Source of the DNA: a bacterium
GTDB lineage: Bacteria > JADJOY01
Direction of reading: 5' to 3'
DNA: 20,000 nucleotides
Assembly: GCA_046331705.1 (NCBI GenBank)
Contig: JAXLQJ010000010.1
Coordinates: forward strand, 180,005 to 200,004
In this document: piece by piece, positions 1-6,095 of the stretch
Layout: every line of letters starts with the position of its first letter
Numbering within the stretch: position 1 is the first letter of the stretch
The notes under the pieces: model-generated
The model's database searches: none
The model's input: the letters and a program-made list of their open reading frames with translations, nothing else
Told to the model about the DNA's origin: nothing
Program-made: the position numbers and the translations under genes

Positions 1-434
1 GCCGAGCAGGTACGCGGCCCGTGGGCGAGAAGGCGCCCAATCCATGGGGGCTTCGCGACATGCTCGGGAACGTCTACGAGTGGTGCAGCGACGGGTACGG
101 GCCGTACGCTCCGGGTGCGGTGCAAGACCCCGCAGGACCTGCCGAGGGCTCGCTTCGCGTGCTCCGTGGCGGCTCTTGGCTCTCGCACGCTGAGTACGTG
201 CGTGCGGCGCACCGGATCAGGGGCGGGCCGGACGCTCGCGACGGCTACCTTGGCTTCCGCCTTGCCCGAGGTCAGGGTGCGCCAGGCCAGGAAAGCGAGC
301 GTGCCGGAGGGGGCGCGGCGCGGGCCGGCCAGGCGGGGACCGCCGTCGGCCCGGCCCGAAGCACGCGACCCCAAGGCGTAAGCCAAGGAGCGGGTGTCAC
401 GAAGACGCGCGCATCGTCCAAGCGGAAGCAATAG
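1..434 (+). CDS. DGR target protein 1, C-terminal part (formylglycine-generating enzyme/FGE-sulfatase family, CLec fold); 5'-truncated by the window edge
   Basis: Frame is open from base 3: [28 protein letters not shown]...RVLRGGSW...R...LGFRLAR, the FGE-sulfatase signature motifs. Paralogous to the C-terminus of 2362-3258. Stop TAG 432-434. Confidence 0.92.
143..270 (+). repeat. DGR variable repeat VR1
   Basis: Ungapped 128-nt alignment to TR 2065-2192. 17 mismatches: 16 at TR adenines and one T>A (TR 2141 vs 219). Confidence 0.96.
271..284 (+). promoter_or_regulatory. IMH-like element of VR1 (GTCAGGGTGCGCCA)
   Basis: Identical 14-mer follows VR2 (3229-3242). TR continues with a different sequence (CGCACGAGCGGGCC), as expected for IMH versus IMH*. 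Confidence 0.7.
321..358 (+). other. Conserved hairpin downstream of VR1 (apex GGCGG-GGA-CCGCC, 332-344)
   Basis: Same 13-nt apex occurs after VR2 (3298-3310). Outer arms CGGGCCGG (321-328) and CCGGCCCG (351-358) are complementary. Confidence 0.6.
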
Positions 435-449
435 GCTCATGGCCAGACC

Positions 450-485
450 ACGCGCGGCCCTTGGCCGCGCGTCGCGCATTTTTCG
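450..485 (+). terminator. Perfect hairpin ACGCGCGGCC-CTT-GGCCGCGCGT followed by a T-run: terminator or DGR cruciform
   Basis: 10-bp perfect stem at 450-472, then CGCGCATTTTTC; lies just after the target 1 stop. Confidence 0.55.
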
Positions 486-515
486 CGAAGCTCACGAGTG
501 GGAGCCGCCGTGCGT

Positions 516-1010
516 ATGCGCTTCTTCACGATTCCCGTCTTCGCCGACGACACTGCCGCGAACGAGCTCAACGGGTTCCTCGCCTCCCGTCGCGTGCTTT
601 CGATCGATCGCCGGCTGATCGACGACGGCCCGGGGAGTGCTTGGGCCGTGTGCGTCACCTACCTCGACGCGACGAGCGGCGCGGCACCGATCAAGAAGGG
701 CAAAGTCGACTACAAAGAGGTGCTTTCCGACGGCGATTTCGCAGTGTTCGTGCGCCTGCGCGCACTTCGGAAGAGCTTGGCCGAGCGCGATGCCGTACCC
801 GCCTACGCCATCTTCACGAACGAGCAGCTCGCCGCGATGGTCGAGCGGTGAGTGAGCACGGCGGCCGACATCGAGTCGATTGAAGGTGTCGGCAAGTCGC
901 GGGTGGAGAAGTACGGCGCCGCGTTCCTCGAGATCCTGTGCTCCGCGGACCTCGCCGCGGCGCCAGCCGCCCTGACGGCCACCACCACCACCACCACCGC
1001 CGCCGAGTAG
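516..1010 (+). pseudogene. HRDC-domain DGR accessory protein interrupted by an in-frame TGA at 849-851 (ORF as read: 516-851)
   Basis: GGAG at 501-504, ATG at 516. ...FVRLRALRKSLAERDAVPAYAIFTNEQLAAMVER*VSTAADIESIEGVGKSRVEKYGAAFLEIL... forms one HRDC domain across the stop. The frame continues to TAG 1008-1010, 7 nt before the RT ATG. Confidence 0.85.
981..998 (+). repeat. (ACC)6 microsatellite encoding poly-Thr in the HRDC tail
   Basis: ACCACCACCACCACCACC read directly. Confidence 0.8.
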
Positions 1011-1017
1011 GCCGCCG

Positions 1018-2028
1018 ATGCCGAGGCGCAGCGCGGTCAGCCTCGGCGAGATCGCATCGTTCGAGAATCTGGCAGCGGCGTTCTGGCGCGCCGCCCGAGG
1101 CAAACGCCACCGGCTGGAGGTGCGCCGCTTCGAGGCGCAACTGGAGCACGAGCTGGCGGCCCTCGCCGCCGAGATCGTCTCGCTTCGTGTGCCGGTCGGG
1201 CGGTTTCACGTGTTCCAGGTCTTCGACCCGAAGCCGCGCCTGATTCACGCGCCGGCCTTTCGCGAGCGTGTGCTGCACCACGCCATGATGCGGCCGATGG
1301 AGCCCGTGCTCGATCGCTCGTTGGTCGACGACACGTTCGCGTGTCGCACGGGGAAAGGCACCTTGGCCGCCGTCGAGCGCGCGCAACACCATCTCAGACG
1401 CTTCTCGTGGTACGCGAAGCTCGATGTGAGGCGCTACTTCGCCAGTGTCGATCATGCGGTTCTTCGAGCGCTTCTCGAGCGCCGCTTCAAGGACCCGGGG
1501 CTTCTGGCACTTTGCGCCCGTGTGATCGATGCGCACCACGCGGCACCCGGGAAGGGCCTGCCCATCGGTGCGCTCACGTCGCAGCACTTCGCCAATCTCT
1601 ACCTCGCATCGCTCGACCGATTCCTCTTGGAGGAGCAGCGCGTGGCCGGGCTGGTGCGCTACATGGACGACGTGGCGTGGTGGTGCGAGACCAAGGAACA
1701 CGCTCGCGAATCGCTTCGAAACGCGGTCCAGTTGCTGCGCGAGCGACTACTGCTCGAGGTTCACCCCAACGCACGCGTTCAGCGCAGCTCGCACGGGCTC
1801 TCGTTCCTGGGTTTCCGCGTGCGGCGGGGCGCGTTGCTGCTTTCTCGGCGGCGGCGTGTGCGTTACCGGGCCGCTCGGCAACGCTGGGAAGAGGCGTTCC
1901 GCCTCGGCCTGGTCGAGGCCCGGACCCTCCAGGCTGGCTATGCCTCCGCGCTCGCGATCACGCTCCACGCCGAGAGCCGGGGCTGGCGCCGGGCGGAGCT
2001 GGTGCTCCATCCGCCGCTGGACGCGTGA
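1018..2028 (+). CDS. DGR reverse transcriptase (336 aa)
   Basis: RT motifs PKPRLIHAPAFRERVLHHA, FACRTGKGT, KLDVRRYFASVDH, GLPIGALTSQHFANLYL (the SQ motif typical of DGR RTs), YMDD and FLGF. No maturase or endonuclease extension. Confidence 0.96.
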   Translation: MPRRSAVSLGEIASFENLAAAFWRAARGKRHRLEVRRFEAQLEHELAALAAEIVSLRVPVGRFHVFQVFDPKPRLIHAPAFRERVLHHAMMRPMEPVLDRSLVDDTFACRTGKGTLAAVERAQHHLRRFSWYAKLDVRRYFASVDHAVLRALLERRFKDPGLLALCARVIDAHHAAPGKGLPIGALTSQHFANLYLASLDRFLLEEQRVAGLVRYMDDVAWWCETKEHARESLRNAVQLLRERLLLEVHPNARVQRSSHGLSFLGFRVRRGALLLSRRRRVRYRAARQRWEEAFRLGLVEARTLQAGYASALAITLHAESRGWRRAELVLHPPLDA

Positions 2029-2051
2029 GCGGCAGCTGGGTAGAAGGTCGG

Positions 2052-2331
2052 TGGACGAGAGTCACGAGGGCTCGAATCGCGTGATCCGTGGCGGCTCTTG
2101 GAACTCGAACGCTGAGAACGTGCGTGCGGCGAACCGGAACTGGAACGAGCCGGACGATCGCAACGACAACCTTGGCTTCCGCCTTGCCCGAGCGCACGAG
2201 CGGGCCGTGGTGCCCGCCCCTGACCCGACTCTCGTCCAGCCCGTCGGTGGGAACGCCGGCGGCAAACAGCAAGCGGGCGCCAGCGTGCCCGTAGCACGGC
2301 GGATGCCGCGTCGAGCGCTCGCTGGCCGCCC
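2052..2331 (+). ncRNA. Putative DGR RNA (TR plus structured flanks/spacer)
   Basis: Non-coding gap between RT and target 2. A 12-bp inverted repeat (2052-2063 / 2227-2238) encloses TR. Further hairpins: 2200-2217, 2241-2262 (GGAA tetraloop, two G-U pairs) and 2275-2331. Confidence 0.65.
2065..2192 (+). repeat. DGR template repeat (TR)
   Basis: 128 nt with 26 adenines, including 8 AAC and 1 AAT codons in the target reading frame. Matches VR1 and VR2 except at A positions. Intergenic. Confidence 0.96.
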
Positions 2332-2361
2332 ACCCTTCGTTTTGTGCAGCGGACGGTCGTG

Positions 2362-3258
2362 ATGGCGGCGGCCTTCGCTTCTCACCCGCTCGAGACGGGC
2401 GTGCCGCCGTCGTGGGCGTGCGAGTGGGGGGACGATCGCTACGGAGTGTGGGCGGGATTCGCGGTGGGCGAGGTCACGCACCGGCTGCGCTGGATCCGAC
2501 CCGGGACGTTCTGGATGGGCTCGCCAAAGGGCGAAGCGGGGCGGTGGCCGGACGAGGGACCGCGTCATCGTGTGACGATCCGCAGCGGGTTCTGGCTGGG
2601 TGAGATGCCGTGTACCCAGGCGCTCTGGGAAGCGGTGATGGGTGAGAACCCGAGCAGATTCCAGAGCCCTACGCGCCCCGTGGAGCGCGTGAGCTGGAGC
2701 GATTGCCAGGCGTTCCTCGCTCGCCTCGGCGAGCGCGTTCCGGAGCTTAAGCCGCGGCTGCCCACCGAGGCCGAATGGGAGTACGCGTGCCGCGCCGGGA
2801 CCACGACCAGCACCTATGCAGGCGAGCTGGTGATTCGCGGCGACAACGACGGCCCGGTGCTGGATGCCATCGCCTGGTACGGCGGCAACAGCGGTGTGGG
2901 ATTCGAGTTGGCCGAAGCAGAGGACTCCTCGAAGTGGCCGAAGAAGCAGCACCCGCACAAGAAGGCGGGGACTCGGCCCGTGGGCTTGAAGGCACCGAAT
3001 CCGTGGGGCCTCTGCGACATGCTCGGAAACGTTTGGGAATGGTGCGGCGATTGGTTTGGTGACTACGCCCCCGCAGCAGTGACCGATCCGACAGGACCGG
3101 CCGAGGGCTCGGATCGCGTGTTCCGTGGCGGCTCTTGGGGCTCGTACGCGCGGAGCGTGCGTGCGGCGTACCGGGACTGGTACGGGCCGGCGTTCGCATC
3201 GACTACCTTGGCTTCCGCCTTGCCCGAGGTCAGGGTGCGCCAAGCGAGGCCGCGGTAG
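2362..3258 (+). CDS. DGR target protein 2 (FGE-sulfatase/CLec fold); frameshifted inside VR2, corrected frame ends at 3491
   Basis: Motifs WIRPGTFWMGSP, EGPRHRVTI, TQALWEAVMGENPSRF, PVERVSW, RLPTEAEWEYACRAG, PNPWGLCDMLGNVWEWC, RVFRGGSW. The expected end [10 protein letters not shown] is in another frame after 3190. Confidence 0.92.
   Translation: MAAAFASHPLETGVPPSWACEWGDDRYGVWAGFAVGEVTHRLRWIRPGTFWMGSPKGEAGRWPDEGPRHRVTIRSGFWLGEMPCTQALWEAVMGENPSRFQSPTRPVERVSWSDCQAFLARLGERVPELKPRLPTEAEWEYACRAGTTTSTYAGELVIRGDNDGPVLDAIAWYGGNSGVGFELAEAEDSSKWPKKQHPHKKAGTRPVGLKAPNPWGLCDMLGNVWEWCGDWFGDYAPAAVTDPTGPAEGSDRVFRGGSWGSYARSVRAAYRDWYGPAFASTTLASALPEVRVRQARPR
3102..3228 (+). repeat. DGR variable repeat VR2
   Basis: 127 nt versus TR: 14 substitutions at TR adenines, one deletion at a TR adenine (between 3190 and 3191) and 2 non-A changes (3150-3151). 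Confidence 0.95.
3229..3242 (+). promoter_or_regulatory. IMH-like element of VR2 (GTCAGGGTGCGCCA)
   Basis: Identical to 271-284 and absent after TR. Confidence 0.7.
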
Positions 3259-3284
3259 CGGCCAGCCAGACCGGTGCGAGCGAG

Positions 3285-3324
3285 CGCGGGTTGGCGAGGC
3301 GGGGACCGCCGAGCAAGACCCGCG
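3285..3324 (+). other. Conserved hairpin downstream of VR2 (apex GGCGG-GGA-CCGCC, 3298-3310)
   Basis: Outer arms CGCGGGT (3285-3291) and ACCCGCG (3318-3324). Apex identical to the one after VR1. Confidence 0.6.
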
Positions 3325-3354
3325 GCGAGCGAGTGAAGCAAGAGCGAGTGCCTG

Positions 3355-3394
3355 CCGGCGCGGGGCGCGCCCCGCGCCGGTTTCGAAATTTTTT
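3355..3394 (+). terminator. 26-bp perfect palindrome CCGGCGCGGGGCGCGCCCCGCGCCGG followed by TTTCGAAATTTTTT: terminator or cruciform
   Basis: 3355-3380 is its own reverse complement; a T-rich tail follows. Confidence 0.6.
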
Positions 3395-3635
3395 GCCGGG
3401 GATCGTGCCTTTCGATCCCACGGTGCTGGCTCTCACAGTTCCGGGCGCGCCGCTGAGCTCGAGTGAGCTCACCGCGCGACATCCCGCGTGACTTGGCCTC
3501 GGACACCGCGCCACGCCCGCCGGGCGGGGGAAGAGGGCCGTCGAGGGACCGACGGCCCGCCAGTCGATCTGTGCAGCACGGTCTCGACGCTCAGCCTTCC
3601 ACCTCTTCGCGCGTGGGCGCTTCGCTGCGAGCGGC

Positions 3636-3661
3636 TGTAACGCTTGCGGCGCTCGGTGGAC
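3636..3661 (+). promoter_or_regulatory. ECF-sigma-type promoter TGTAAC-N16-GGAC upstream of the anti-sigma gene
   Basis: Same spacing and near-identical boxes as the copies at 3961 and 5194. Confidence 0.5.
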
Positions 3662-3708
3662 CGAACCTGGGGCGATTGCCGCGGCCCCGGCACGGGTGGA
3701 GCGAAACG

Positions 3709-3963
3709 ATGCGTTGTGTCGACGTCACCGAGCTGGTCACCGAATACGTCGAGGGGCGCATGCCCCTCGGCGAGCGCTTGCGATTCCAGCTCCACCTCGG
3801 TGCGTGCGGGCATTGCCGCGCCTATCTGGCGCAGATGCGCCAGACGGTTCGCGCGCTCGAGCGCGTCGCGCCGGCGCCCATGCCGCAGGACGTCCGCGCC
3901 GAGCTCGAGCGCCGCTTTCGCGATTGGTCGCGGACCAAGCCCTCGGACGGCGAAGCCGAGTGA
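3709..3963 (+). CDS. Zinc-finger (zf-HC2/ZAS) anti-sigma factor, 84 aa
   Basis: GGAG at 3698-3701. MRCVDVTELVTEYVEGRM...HLGACGHCRAYLAQMR contains the HxxxCxxC ZAS motif. Confidence 0.88.
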   Translation: MRCVDVTELVTEYVEGRMPLGERLRFQLHLGACGHCRAYLAQMRQTVRALERVAPAPMPQDVRAELERRFRDWSRTKPSDGEAE

Positions 3964-3986: not shown

Positions 3987-4065
3987 TGATAGCCGTGAGC
4001 CGCGGCACCGGGTGGCACCGACGATGGGGTCGGACACGCGGCGCGCGACGGCTCGAGAGGAAGCC

Positions 4066-4650
4066 ATGACTCACGCACACGCCACCGTCGCCACCGCCGC
4101 CGCCGTGAACCTCGCCATGCCCATCGCGGAGACTCCGATGTCCACCGATGCCAAGCCGTCGAATTTTCTGCGCTCGGCCATCGCCAAAGGCGAGGCACTC
4201 TACGGTGTGTTCACGCGGGTCGCGGACCTCCTGCCGCACCCCGTGCTGGCGATCCTGCGCGGGTATTGGGGCTACCAGTTCTTCCAGACCGGCAAGGGCA
4301 AGCTGATGGATCTGGCTTCCGTCACCGACTTCTTCGCTTCGCTCGGCATCCCGGCGCCCCATCTCAACGCCATGATGGCGGGCGCGACCGAGTGCGTGGG
4401 CGGGCTCTTGCTCTTGGTGGGGCTGGGATCGCGGCTCGTTTCGGTGCCGCTTTCCATCACGATGCTGGTCGCGTACGCGACCGCGCATCGCGAGGCGTTG
4501 CTCGGCATCTTCGGCGATCCCGACACGTTCTTGCAGCAGGAGCCGTTCTTGTTCCTGCTCACCGCGGTGTTGGTGCTCGCGTTCGGGCCGGGTGCCTTCT
4601 CGCTCGACGCGCTCGTGAAGAAGCTCGTCCAGAAACGTCGCGCCGCGTGA
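4066..4650 (+). CDS. DoxX family membrane protein (BufD-like)
   Basis: GAGG RBS before ATG 4066. LAILRGYWGYQFFQTGKGKL, FASLGIPAP, ECVGGLLLLVGLGSR and GPGAFSLD are DoxX motifs. Confidence 0.9.
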   Translation: MTHAHATVATAAAVNLAMPIAETPMSTDAKPSNFLRSAIAKGEALYGVFTRVADLLPHPVLAILRGYWGYQFFQTGKGKLMDLASVTDFFASLGIPAPHLNAMMAGATECVGGLLLLVGLGSRLVSVPLSITMLVAYATAHREALLGIFGDPDTFLQQEPFLFLLTAVLVLAFGPGAFSLDALVKKLVQKRRAA

Positions 4651-5288: not shown

Positions 5289-6095
5289 ATGCGACGCGCC
5301 CTTCGTGAGCATTGGCCCGAGTACCTGATGGAGGCGGCGCTCCTCGGGATCTTCATGGTCCTCGCCACGGCGTACACCGTCGCCCTCGAGTACCCGGGCT
5401 CGCCGCTGCGCGCGGCGATCACGAGCGCCGCCGCGCGGCGCGCCCTCATGGGCGTGCTGATCGGCTGCACGGCGTACGCGCTGATCGTCTCGCCGTGGGG
5501 ACGGCAGAGCGGCGCGCACTTCAATCCCGCGACCACGCTCACGTTCCTGCGTCTCGGCAAGATCGGCGGCTGGGACGCGCTCTTCTACGTGGTCGCCCAG
5601 TTCGTGGGTGCGGTCCTCGGGACGGTGCTGATCCGCGCGCTGGTCGGCGCGCCGGTCGCTCATCCCACGGTGGCCTACATCGTGACGACACCGGGCGCGA
5701 GCGGCGTCGCCGCGGCGTTCGCCGGCGAGCTCGCCATCGCCTTCGGGCTGATGACGGTGGTGCTCACGGTCTCGAACCATCCCACGCTGCACACCCGGAC
5801 ACCGCTCTTCGTGGGAATCCTGGTCGGCACGTACATCCTCGTCGAGGCGCCGCTCTCGGGCATGAGCCTGAATCCCGCGCGCTCGTTCGCGCCGGCGCTG
5901 GTCGCCGATTGGTGGCCGTCGCTCTGGATCTACTTCACGGCGCCGCCGCTCGGGATGCTGCTCGCCGCGCAGTCGTACCTGGCGCTCGCGGGGGCCGAGA
6001 AGGTCCACTGCGCCAAGATCCATCACGTGGGCGACGCGCGTTGCGTCGTCTTCCACTGTCGCTTCGGCGATCTCGTCGCGACGAGCGCTCGCTGA
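5289..6095 (+). CDS. MIP/aquaporin family channel with Cys/His-rich C-terminal tail
   Basis: Two NPA boxes (SGAHFNPATT, SGMSLNPARSF) and multiple hydrophobic helices. Confidence 0.93.
   Translation: MRRALREHWPEYLMEAALLGIFMVLATAYTVALEYPGSPLRAAITSAAARRALMGVLIGCTAYALIVSPWGRQSGAHFNPATTLTFLRLGKIGGWDALFYVVAQFVGAVLGTVLIRALVGAPVAHPTVAYIVTTPGASGVAAAFAGELAIAFGLMTVVLTVSNHPTLHTRTPLFVGILVGTYILVEAPLSGMSLNPARSFAPALVADWWPSLWIYFTAPPLGMLLAAQSYLALAGAEKVHCAKIHHVGDARCVVFHCRFGDLVATSAR

Follow-up and report, generated by a model that had tools for sequence, protein, structure and literature searches.

How do diversity-generating retroelements (DGRs) that lack the accessory protein Avd make and install their mutagenised cDNA, and which protein occupies the accessory slot in its place? 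The locus that raises this question lies in a stretch of 20,000 nucleotides (nt) (the window; contig JAXLQJ010000010.1, positions 180,005 to 200,004 of the forward strand) from an 8.17-Mb, 118-contig draft genome with a completeness of 95.67% (GCA_046331705.1). The first 3.3 kb of the window form one DGR cassette in the order target gene, HRDC gene, reverse transcriptase (RT), template repeat (TR), target gene (TG-HRDC-RT-TR-TG). The HRDC gene, extending from 510 or 516 to 1010, is the subject of this work. We consider it probable that it is an accessory gene of the published Architecture C, that it belongs to an Avd-less RT lineage and that it has been inactivated by a real nonsense mutation; intact proteins of its kind may operate by binding nucleic acid and being anchored to the RT or to one another.

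The cassette has the features by which DGRs are recognized, namely adenine-biased differences between the TR and the variable repeats (VR1 and VR2), an RT gene adjoining the TR, and a VR at the C-terminus of a target with the C-type-lectin (CLec)/FGE-sulfatase fold. Both targets matched PF03781, and each carries its VR at the 3′ end. VR1 and the TR differed at 17 positions. Sixteen of these are TR adenines; at the remaining one (TR 2141), VR1 has the letter of a related strain's TR. The differences of VR2 were mostly at adenines as well, with in addition two sites that agree with the related strain's TR and a 1-nt gap. The RT gene is present as a single copy in the genome, ends in TGA and encodes a protein with 42-62% identity to the RTs of 55 related loci. 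It contains LPIGALTSQHFAN, which we take to be a DGR-type RT motif.

Reading frame of the accessory gene

An earlier note on this DNA, made from the sequence alone, had described a gene at 516-1010 with an N-terminal domain of unknown function followed by an HRDC domain. Translation of this region gave MRFFTIPVF...WAVCVTY and then the HRDC domain, and a profile search confirmed the assignment (PF00570, residues 75-141, profile positions 2-68 of 68, E 1.9e-17, read through the stop codon described below). The N-terminal domain (N-domain) was likewise recovered, as a conserved unit of about 50 residues. Unmentioned in the note was the interruption of the gene by an in-frame TGA at 849-851. The reported spacing was correct: the accessory gene ends in TAG at 1008-1010 and the RT starts with ATG at 1018 on the same strand, leaving 7 nt. 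Between the end of target 1 (434) and the start of target 2 (2344), the accessory gene and the RT were the only family-supported genes, followed by the TR, in agreement with the observation that no avd lies between the targets. Translation more likely starts at GTG 510 than at ATG 516, because the former yields the MxxRFFTIP start of the family and lies 5 nt behind a GGGAG sequence (500-504).

The TGA would delete the last two HRDC helices. The second open reading frame (ORF) carries the invariant residues G124, G126 and K132, and its GTG directly abuts the stop codon (TGAGTG). At the alignment column of the stop, R is the residue in 64 of 108 homologs, K in 15, Q in 11, G in 8 and some other residue in 10. 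Since Arg predominates at this position, the TGA would most simply have originated by a single change from CGA. The gene has the HRDC domain and the position next to the RT that mark this class of accessory genes, and its frame is not open across the whole domain. It is an HRDC-type accessory gene by descent, and it is broken. The protein as encoded is most likely non-functional, and the nonsense codon makes the window copy a poor example of the working protein.

Verification of the stop codon

A contig from run X3 covered 705-872 with 0 differences to the window, the TGA included. The X3 contigs are not simply the window's own assembly, because the X3 piece of VR1 differs from the window at 23 places. 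The identical 111-amino-acid (aa) product was called on three contigs, and the second half was called separately, as a product of 52, 51 or 50 aa, on three further contigs. One of two variants (P0273 and P0274) has Y133C and shorter Thr runs; the Y133C variant corresponds to 913 A>G plus a 6-nt gap in the (ACC) run and was present in X2 and X3 contigs. The TGA is a genuine nonsense mutation common to at least two strain variants. It is scarcely credible that the TGA arose in sequencing or assembly and that the true gene is intact, even for a 118-contig draft in which several adjacent genes appear frameshifted and an indel in VR2 has no counterpart in another sample: the X3 contig is identical across the stop despite its divergent VR1, independent assemblies call both halves as separate genes, and the change to TGA is a substitution and not an indel.

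Selenocysteine insertion and an alternative genetic code were considered and rejected. ARAGORN found neither a selenocysteine tRNA nor a tRNA with a UCA anticodon in the genome, TGA ends the RT gene, and homologs have Arg, Lys or Gln at the site. A search against Rfam over window positions 1-3600 gave no match.

No intact, near-identical allele was found among 401 database hits, the best non-self identity being 62%. A metagenome scan with the 31 nt directly 3′ of the stop gave no match, and a scan with the TR end gave one 1281-nt contig, which begins at window position 947 and so does not include the stop region. The accessory gene was not found in 40 other genomes (four of the same genus, one of the same family and the rest more distant), where a 259-aa HRDC protein was the sole match.

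Avd and the reverse transcriptase lineages

Avd was searched for using the profiles PF05635, TIGR02436 and PF22296 (bAvd-like, more sensitive). In the genome of the window the three profiles gave 0 matches at E ≤ 1, so that an avd gene elsewhere in the genome, which the earlier note had wanted checked, did not turn up; the accessory protein itself matched no Avd family. Close family members were defined by a family-profile E ≤ 1e-49 and occupied 54 places in 42 other genomes. Within 10 kb of these 54 places, PF05635 and PF22296 matched nothing. The Avd-type match nearest to a close member was a generic PF05635 protein 12.6 kb away (genome G009), and a truncated copy (G028:C13, E 2.2e-35, no adjoining RT) had a PF05635 protein at 3 kb. 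Neither PF05635 nor PF22296 was matched at E ≤ 0.01 in 7 of the 42 genomes, a soft figure, as their completeness is not given.

The same 42 genomes hold 11 divergent relatives (E 1e-23 to 4e-12) that lie directly upstream of a bAvd match. Three of these cassettes were read and consist of an HRDC protein of 174-202 aa, bAvd (PF22296, E 1e-17 to 1e-20) and the RT, in this order. In one such Avd-associated relative (L087), the HRDC domain was matched at E 2.2e-21 and the N-terminus matched the N-domain profile with a probability of 92.8% (E 3.9e-7), W43 and C46 being absent; the N-terminus of a second relative had no significant match to this profile. In each of seven genomes (G015, G042, G011, G014, G005, G026 and G021) an Avd-less HRDC cassette occurs alongside one of the HRDC+Avd type and, judging by this gene content, the two types coexist in one cell.

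In a quick, unrooted maximum-likelihood tree, 56 RTs of the Avd-less class were split by a branch with SH-aLRT 100 from nine HRDC+Avd RTs and three RTs with bAvd and without HRDC; some clustering is expected, as similarity of the accessory protein was the basis on which the classes were chosen. The sequence comparisons support an Avd-less DGR lineage with an N+HRDC protein. The proposal of an Avd-independent DGR subtype, made in the earlier note, is upheld by the absence of Avd and the co-occurrence with RTs described below, and has been published before (Wu et al. 2018, PMC5758913).

Protein family and genomic context

Proteins of the family have about 150-170 residues. At E ≤ 0.001, 401 database proteins were matched, with a best non-self E of 1.6e-51, and by sequence the family match is far beyond chance. 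A scan of contigs from one genome per species gave 269 confirmed family loci in many phyla; the counts of genomic context cover the 80 loci that were kept. An RT homolog was directly downstream in 80/80 loci, which bears out the expected co-occurrence with DGR RTs, and FGE-sulfatase target matches were also present in 78/80. In all 80 the accessory frame was open through the aligned region, and in three of them it is joined to a frame further downstream. By extrapolation, the RT starts between -32 and +8 nt relative to the accessory stop in 75 of the 80 loci. As the accessory gene is always directly upstream of the RT, and usually overlaps it, the two proteins are probably made together. The mean isoelectric point (pI) of the family was 6.5 ± 1.2, compared with 4.97 for the window copy. 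Cultured carriers of close family members include Roseospira visakhapatnamensis JA131, Azospirillum brasilense HAMBI_3172, Rhodoblastus sphagnicola DSM 16996 and Planctomycetaceae SH139.

A profile of the N-domain alone matched 2601 representatives at E ≤ 0.001. Among the best 150 of these, a Pfam HRDC match was present in 33, and the start of an HRDC domain was seen in 80 of the 122 that were sufficiently long. Fifteen representatives were read and proved truncated, or continued into chimeric or wrong-frame tails, beginning either behind the N-domain or in mid-HRDC. No second domain architecture for the N-domain was seen among the best 150 of the 2601 representatives.

Predicted structure of the two domains

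AlphaFold2 modelled the full protein with a pLDDT of 90.3 from an alignment of 109 sequences. The model consists of the N-domain (2-50), a low-confidence linker (51-65) and a five-helix HRDC domain (66-148). The HRDC model was superposed on the HRDC domain of Escherichia coli RecQ (1wud) with a target-normalised TM of 0.88 and an rmsd of 0.9 Å over 72 columns, and the family profile matched 1wud with E 1.4e-16. The family motif VPaYalFtneqL was aligned with RecQ VPPYVVFNDATL; we take the Tyr of the RecQ motif to be Tyr555, which is presumably the residue reported to be important for single-stranded DNA binding.

Modelled alone, the N-domain reached a pLDDT of 93.6 (E2-7, H13-24, E26-35, E42-50). 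W43 is invariant, and F4, P7, N19, F21, G38 and C46 are conserved in at least 90% of sequences. The domain matched no Pfam, NCBIfam or PHROGs family. A fold search against 48,161 chains gave no Z above 4.8, the best Foldseek E was 0.35, and the best score in a protein atlas was 0.80, which is beneath the meaningful level. Among the rows of the fold search were 1jyh (SbmC, Z 4.7), 1jw3 (MTH1598, Z 3.9) and 1e4f (FtsA, Z 3.8), with rows of equal Z for ACT, NikR, MinE and S6. We assume SbmC (GyrI), MTH1598 and FtsA 1C to be examples of the SHS2 (strand-helix-strand-strand) class; since they tie with ACT, NikR, MinE and S6, a common arrangement is more probable than a relationship. The N-domain has neither a library family nor a convincing fold match, and this feature of the protein may be undescribed. 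Prediction of a complex between the N-domain alone and the RT (alignments A3 and A4) gave a score of 0.00, which counts neither way.

Comparison with known systems

In Wu et al. (2018, PMC5758913), Architecture C comprises the 14 DGRs, out of 372, that have an HRDC gene; roughly half of the 14 also carry avd, and Avd-independent homing was already proposed. The table of that paper lists TG-HRDC-RT-TR, HRDC-RT-TR-TG, TG-TR-HRDC-RT-TG and TG-HRDC-AVD-RT-TR, and gives lengths of 441-492 nt for the HRDC genes. The calculated pI of the HRDC proteins was 6.9 ± 1.3 there, versus 9.5 for Avd, and the family mean obtained here agrees with the published value. A Treponema paper gives an HRDC gene of 483 nt that overlaps the RT by 47 nt (PMC4891356). 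In a review (PMC8632793) and a 2023 survey (PMC10053308), HRDC is merely named as accessory, and DGR biochemistry to date is that of the Bordetella RT-Avd complex only (PMC5758913, PMC8632793). A search of the full-text literature found no functional study of an HRDC accessory protein, and the parts of the HRDC-DGR literature available to us make no mention of the N-terminal domain.

The published cassettes of Architecture C (Treponema denticola, Pelodictyon phaeoclathratiforme, Chlorobium chlorochromatii, Accumulibacter) resemble the present one in an HRDC gene, some 147-164 codons long, immediately ahead of the RT, in FGE-sulfatase/CLec targets, in avd-less arrangements such as TG-HRDC-RT-TR and in non-basic proteins; that the published proteins share the N-domain is suggested by their length only. 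The window cassette differs from them in its TG-HRDC-RT-TR-TG order and in the in-frame stop of its HRDC gene. With the HRDC+Avd cassettes (C1, for example Haliscomenobacter hydrossis) it has in common a two-domain N+HRDC protein, the same kind of target and an RT of about 46% identity. In those cassettes, however, bAvd stands between the HRDC gene and the RT, the N-domain is without W43 and C46, and the RTs lie across the branch of support 100. The DGR of Bordetella phage BPP-1 likewise combines an RT and a TR with a VR at the C-terminus of a CLec-fold target, has repeats that differ specifically at adenines and carries a small accessory gene beside the RT. Its accessory protein is a basic four-helix bundle, whereas that of the window has a beta-alpha-beta-beta domain plus a five-helix HRDC, a pI of 4.97 and no match to PF22296 or PF05635. 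The HRDC domain of RecQ (1wud) is matched in fold and in sequence over the entire domain, but the window protein is small and stands alone, with another N-terminal domain and no helicase core.

The cassette type is already catalogued; the Avd-less reading is right but not new. Three points may be new: the N-terminal domain, the clean separation of HRDC lineages that have Avd from those that lack it, and how large the family is. As to how Avd-less DGRs make and install mutagenised cDNA, the question is narrowed and not solved. The HRDC helper has two domains, the N-terminal one being absent from the family libraries; HRDC cassettes with and without Avd belong to distinct RT lineages, which are often found in the same genome; and close family members occur in cultured strains, where they are open to a clean genetic test. 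The window copy is a natural nonsense allele, useful only if VR variation can be linked to the allele.

Condition of the cassette

Besides the stop codon, other features of the cassette point to decay or inactivity. In VR2, one nucleotide is missing after 3190 (3186-3195), opposite a TR adenine, and this deletion frameshifts the C-terminus of target 2; a contig from run X3 has an extra A behind 3190. Target 2 ends in the wrong frame, and its conserved C-terminus is still legible in the next frame (3135-3491). Directly upstream of target 1, some 0.6-1.6 kb ahead of the window (L004 10413-11400), a third FGE-sulfatase copy is divided between two frames and continues into the ORF of target 1. Its end is VR-like but degenerate, and the copy is probably what remains of a former target. 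Further upstream, about 3.4-4.3 kb from the window, lies a gene for a MoxR-like AAA ATPase (L004 7701-8647; AAA_5 E 9e-6; bpMoxR 24 bits, which is under the cut-off), with its Walker A and LLDEIDK boxes in different frames. DGRs have been tied to MoxR-vWA ternary systems (Kaur et al. 2020, PMC7159879).

In strain L086, which is 96% identical, the TR departs from that of the window at 2113, 2114, 2141, 2163 and 2166. VR2 carries the L086 letters at 2113-14 and VR1 carries the L086 letter at 2141, all non-adenine positions of the window TR, and these matches imply that neither VR has been rewritten since the window TR changed. An X4 contig over 461-1604 had six differences from the window, and contigs of X1 and X2 gave no cover of the VRs. 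For target 1, the best identity in the protein database was 70%, with no near-identical alleles among the matches.

Proposed role and alternatives

The HRDC domain would, as in RecQ, bind single-stranded or structured nucleic acid, either the cDNA or DNA at the 3′ end of the VR, and the N-domain may anchor the accessory protein to the RT or to itself. The protein would act at a step other than that of Avd, since relatives coexist with Avd. Handling of cDNA or target DNA is judged the likeliest role and is put forward tentatively. A functional substitute for Avd, which would bind the RT and the TR RNA, be needed for cDNA synthesis and dock on the RT through its N-domain, is possible but doubtful. 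The slot directly before the RT in 80/80 loci speaks for such a substitute, as do the lack of Avd nearby and anywhere in the window's genome and 7/42 genomes, and an invariant W43 and near-invariant C46 that are class-specific and missing from the Avd-associated relative. The earlier suggestion that the protein replaces Avd is nevertheless weakened by the 11 cassettes in which relatives of the same layout coexist with bAvd, by the TG-HRDC-AVD-RT-TR order listed by Wu et al., and by charge, the family being near neutral and the window copy acidic compared with the pI of 9.5 of Avd.

Several observations weigh against a broken gene in an Avd-less, inactive cassette, and some of them favour a gene that still works, by UGA read-through, by re-initiation at the GTG with the halves reassembling, or through the N-domain alone. 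The stop is common to at least two strain variants and is therefore not brand new, the second half and its tail are open in all three versions, and a GTG stands immediately behind the TGA. The RT is intact and, compared with L086, has 22 synonymous and 12 non-synonymous codon differences, a pattern that on sequence grounds does not look like that of a dead cassette. VR1 varies between samples: the listed X4 differences fall, 3/3, on TR adenines (2157, 2162 and 2168), so that diversification of VR1 has taken place within the species. Assembly errors could account for the other frameshifts of the locus, the comparison with further assemblies having covered the TGA alone; the count of genomes without Avd is soft, and the roles given to both domains are inferred. 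A working gene is nonetheless unlikely. The stop occurred in 0/80 related loci and is hence not a conserved recoding site, stops in the 42 genomes were confined to scattered fragmentary matches, and the searches for a selenocysteine tRNA, a suppressor tRNA and an Rfam element were negative. The Y133C variant hits a residue conserved in at least 90% of sequences, which hints at relaxed constraint, and neither VR has been rewritten since the TR changes at 2113-14 and 2141. It would be more improbable again for N+HRDC to be an obligatory RT partner with the N-domain as a new RT-docking module, and for diversification of VR1 to continue with the split gene acting as two non-covalent pieces or by read-through. 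An inactivated Architecture C accessory gene is the reading we prefer.

Features of the cassette and neighbouring genes

The complete ORF of target 1 encodes 421 aa (L004 11169-12434) and starts upstream of the window. Following both VRs is a GC-rich element with a GGCGG-GGA-CCGCC hairpin, which is missing after the TR and is a candidate target-site signal. The fold energies of the hairpins 3′ of the VRs were indistinguishable from those of shuffled sequence (z -0.69 and -1.56). Coordinates are collected in Table 1.

Table 1. Features of the DGR cassette, in window coordinates
Feature	Position	Strand	Evidence and remarks
Target gene 1, 3′ part	3..434	+	FGE-sulfatase / C-type-lectin-fold variable protein; Pfam E 1.3e-21, profile 164-255 of 255
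VR1, variable repeat of target 1	143..270	+	87% identity to TR
GC-rich 28-nt element, about 50 nt 3′ of both VRs	318..345; second copy 3284-3311	+	Direct repeat D3, 89% identity
GGGAG Shine-Dalgarno-like site and GTG 510 start	500..512	+	Sequence reading; family consensus MxxRFFTIP
N-terminal domain, residues 1-50	516..665	+	Strand-helix-strand-strand, AlphaFold2
First ORF, 111 aa: N-domain, linker, first HRDC helices	516..848	+	HRDC profile positions 2-38
In-frame TGA, residue 112, within the HRDC domain	849..851	+	Translation; homolog alignment column
Second ORF, 52 aa: last HRDC helices and Ala/Thr-rich tail	852..1010	+	HRDC profile positions 42-68
(ACC)6 run, Thr6	981..998	+	Length varies by strain: Thr6, Thr4 plus Ser, Thr4
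DGR reverse transcriptase, 336 aa, intact	1018..2028	+	RVT_1 E 2e-14
TR, template repeat	2065..2192	+	Repeat family D1, alignments; 37 nt downstream of RT
Target gene 2, FGE-sulfatase fold	2344..3258	+	Pfam E 1.2e-43, match ends at profile 246 of 255
VR2, variable repeat of target 2	3102..3229	+	Repeat search and TR alignments

The last 17 nt at the 3′ end of VR1 (CCTTGGCTTCCGCCTTG, 248-264) are 94% complementary to 372-388, 107 nt downstream; a counterpart for VR2 was not reported. Downstream of the cassette, the genes at 3463-3963, 4012-4650 and 5289-6095 encode a zf-HC2 anti-sigma-like protein, a DoxX membrane protein and an MIP channel, and are apparently unrelated to it.

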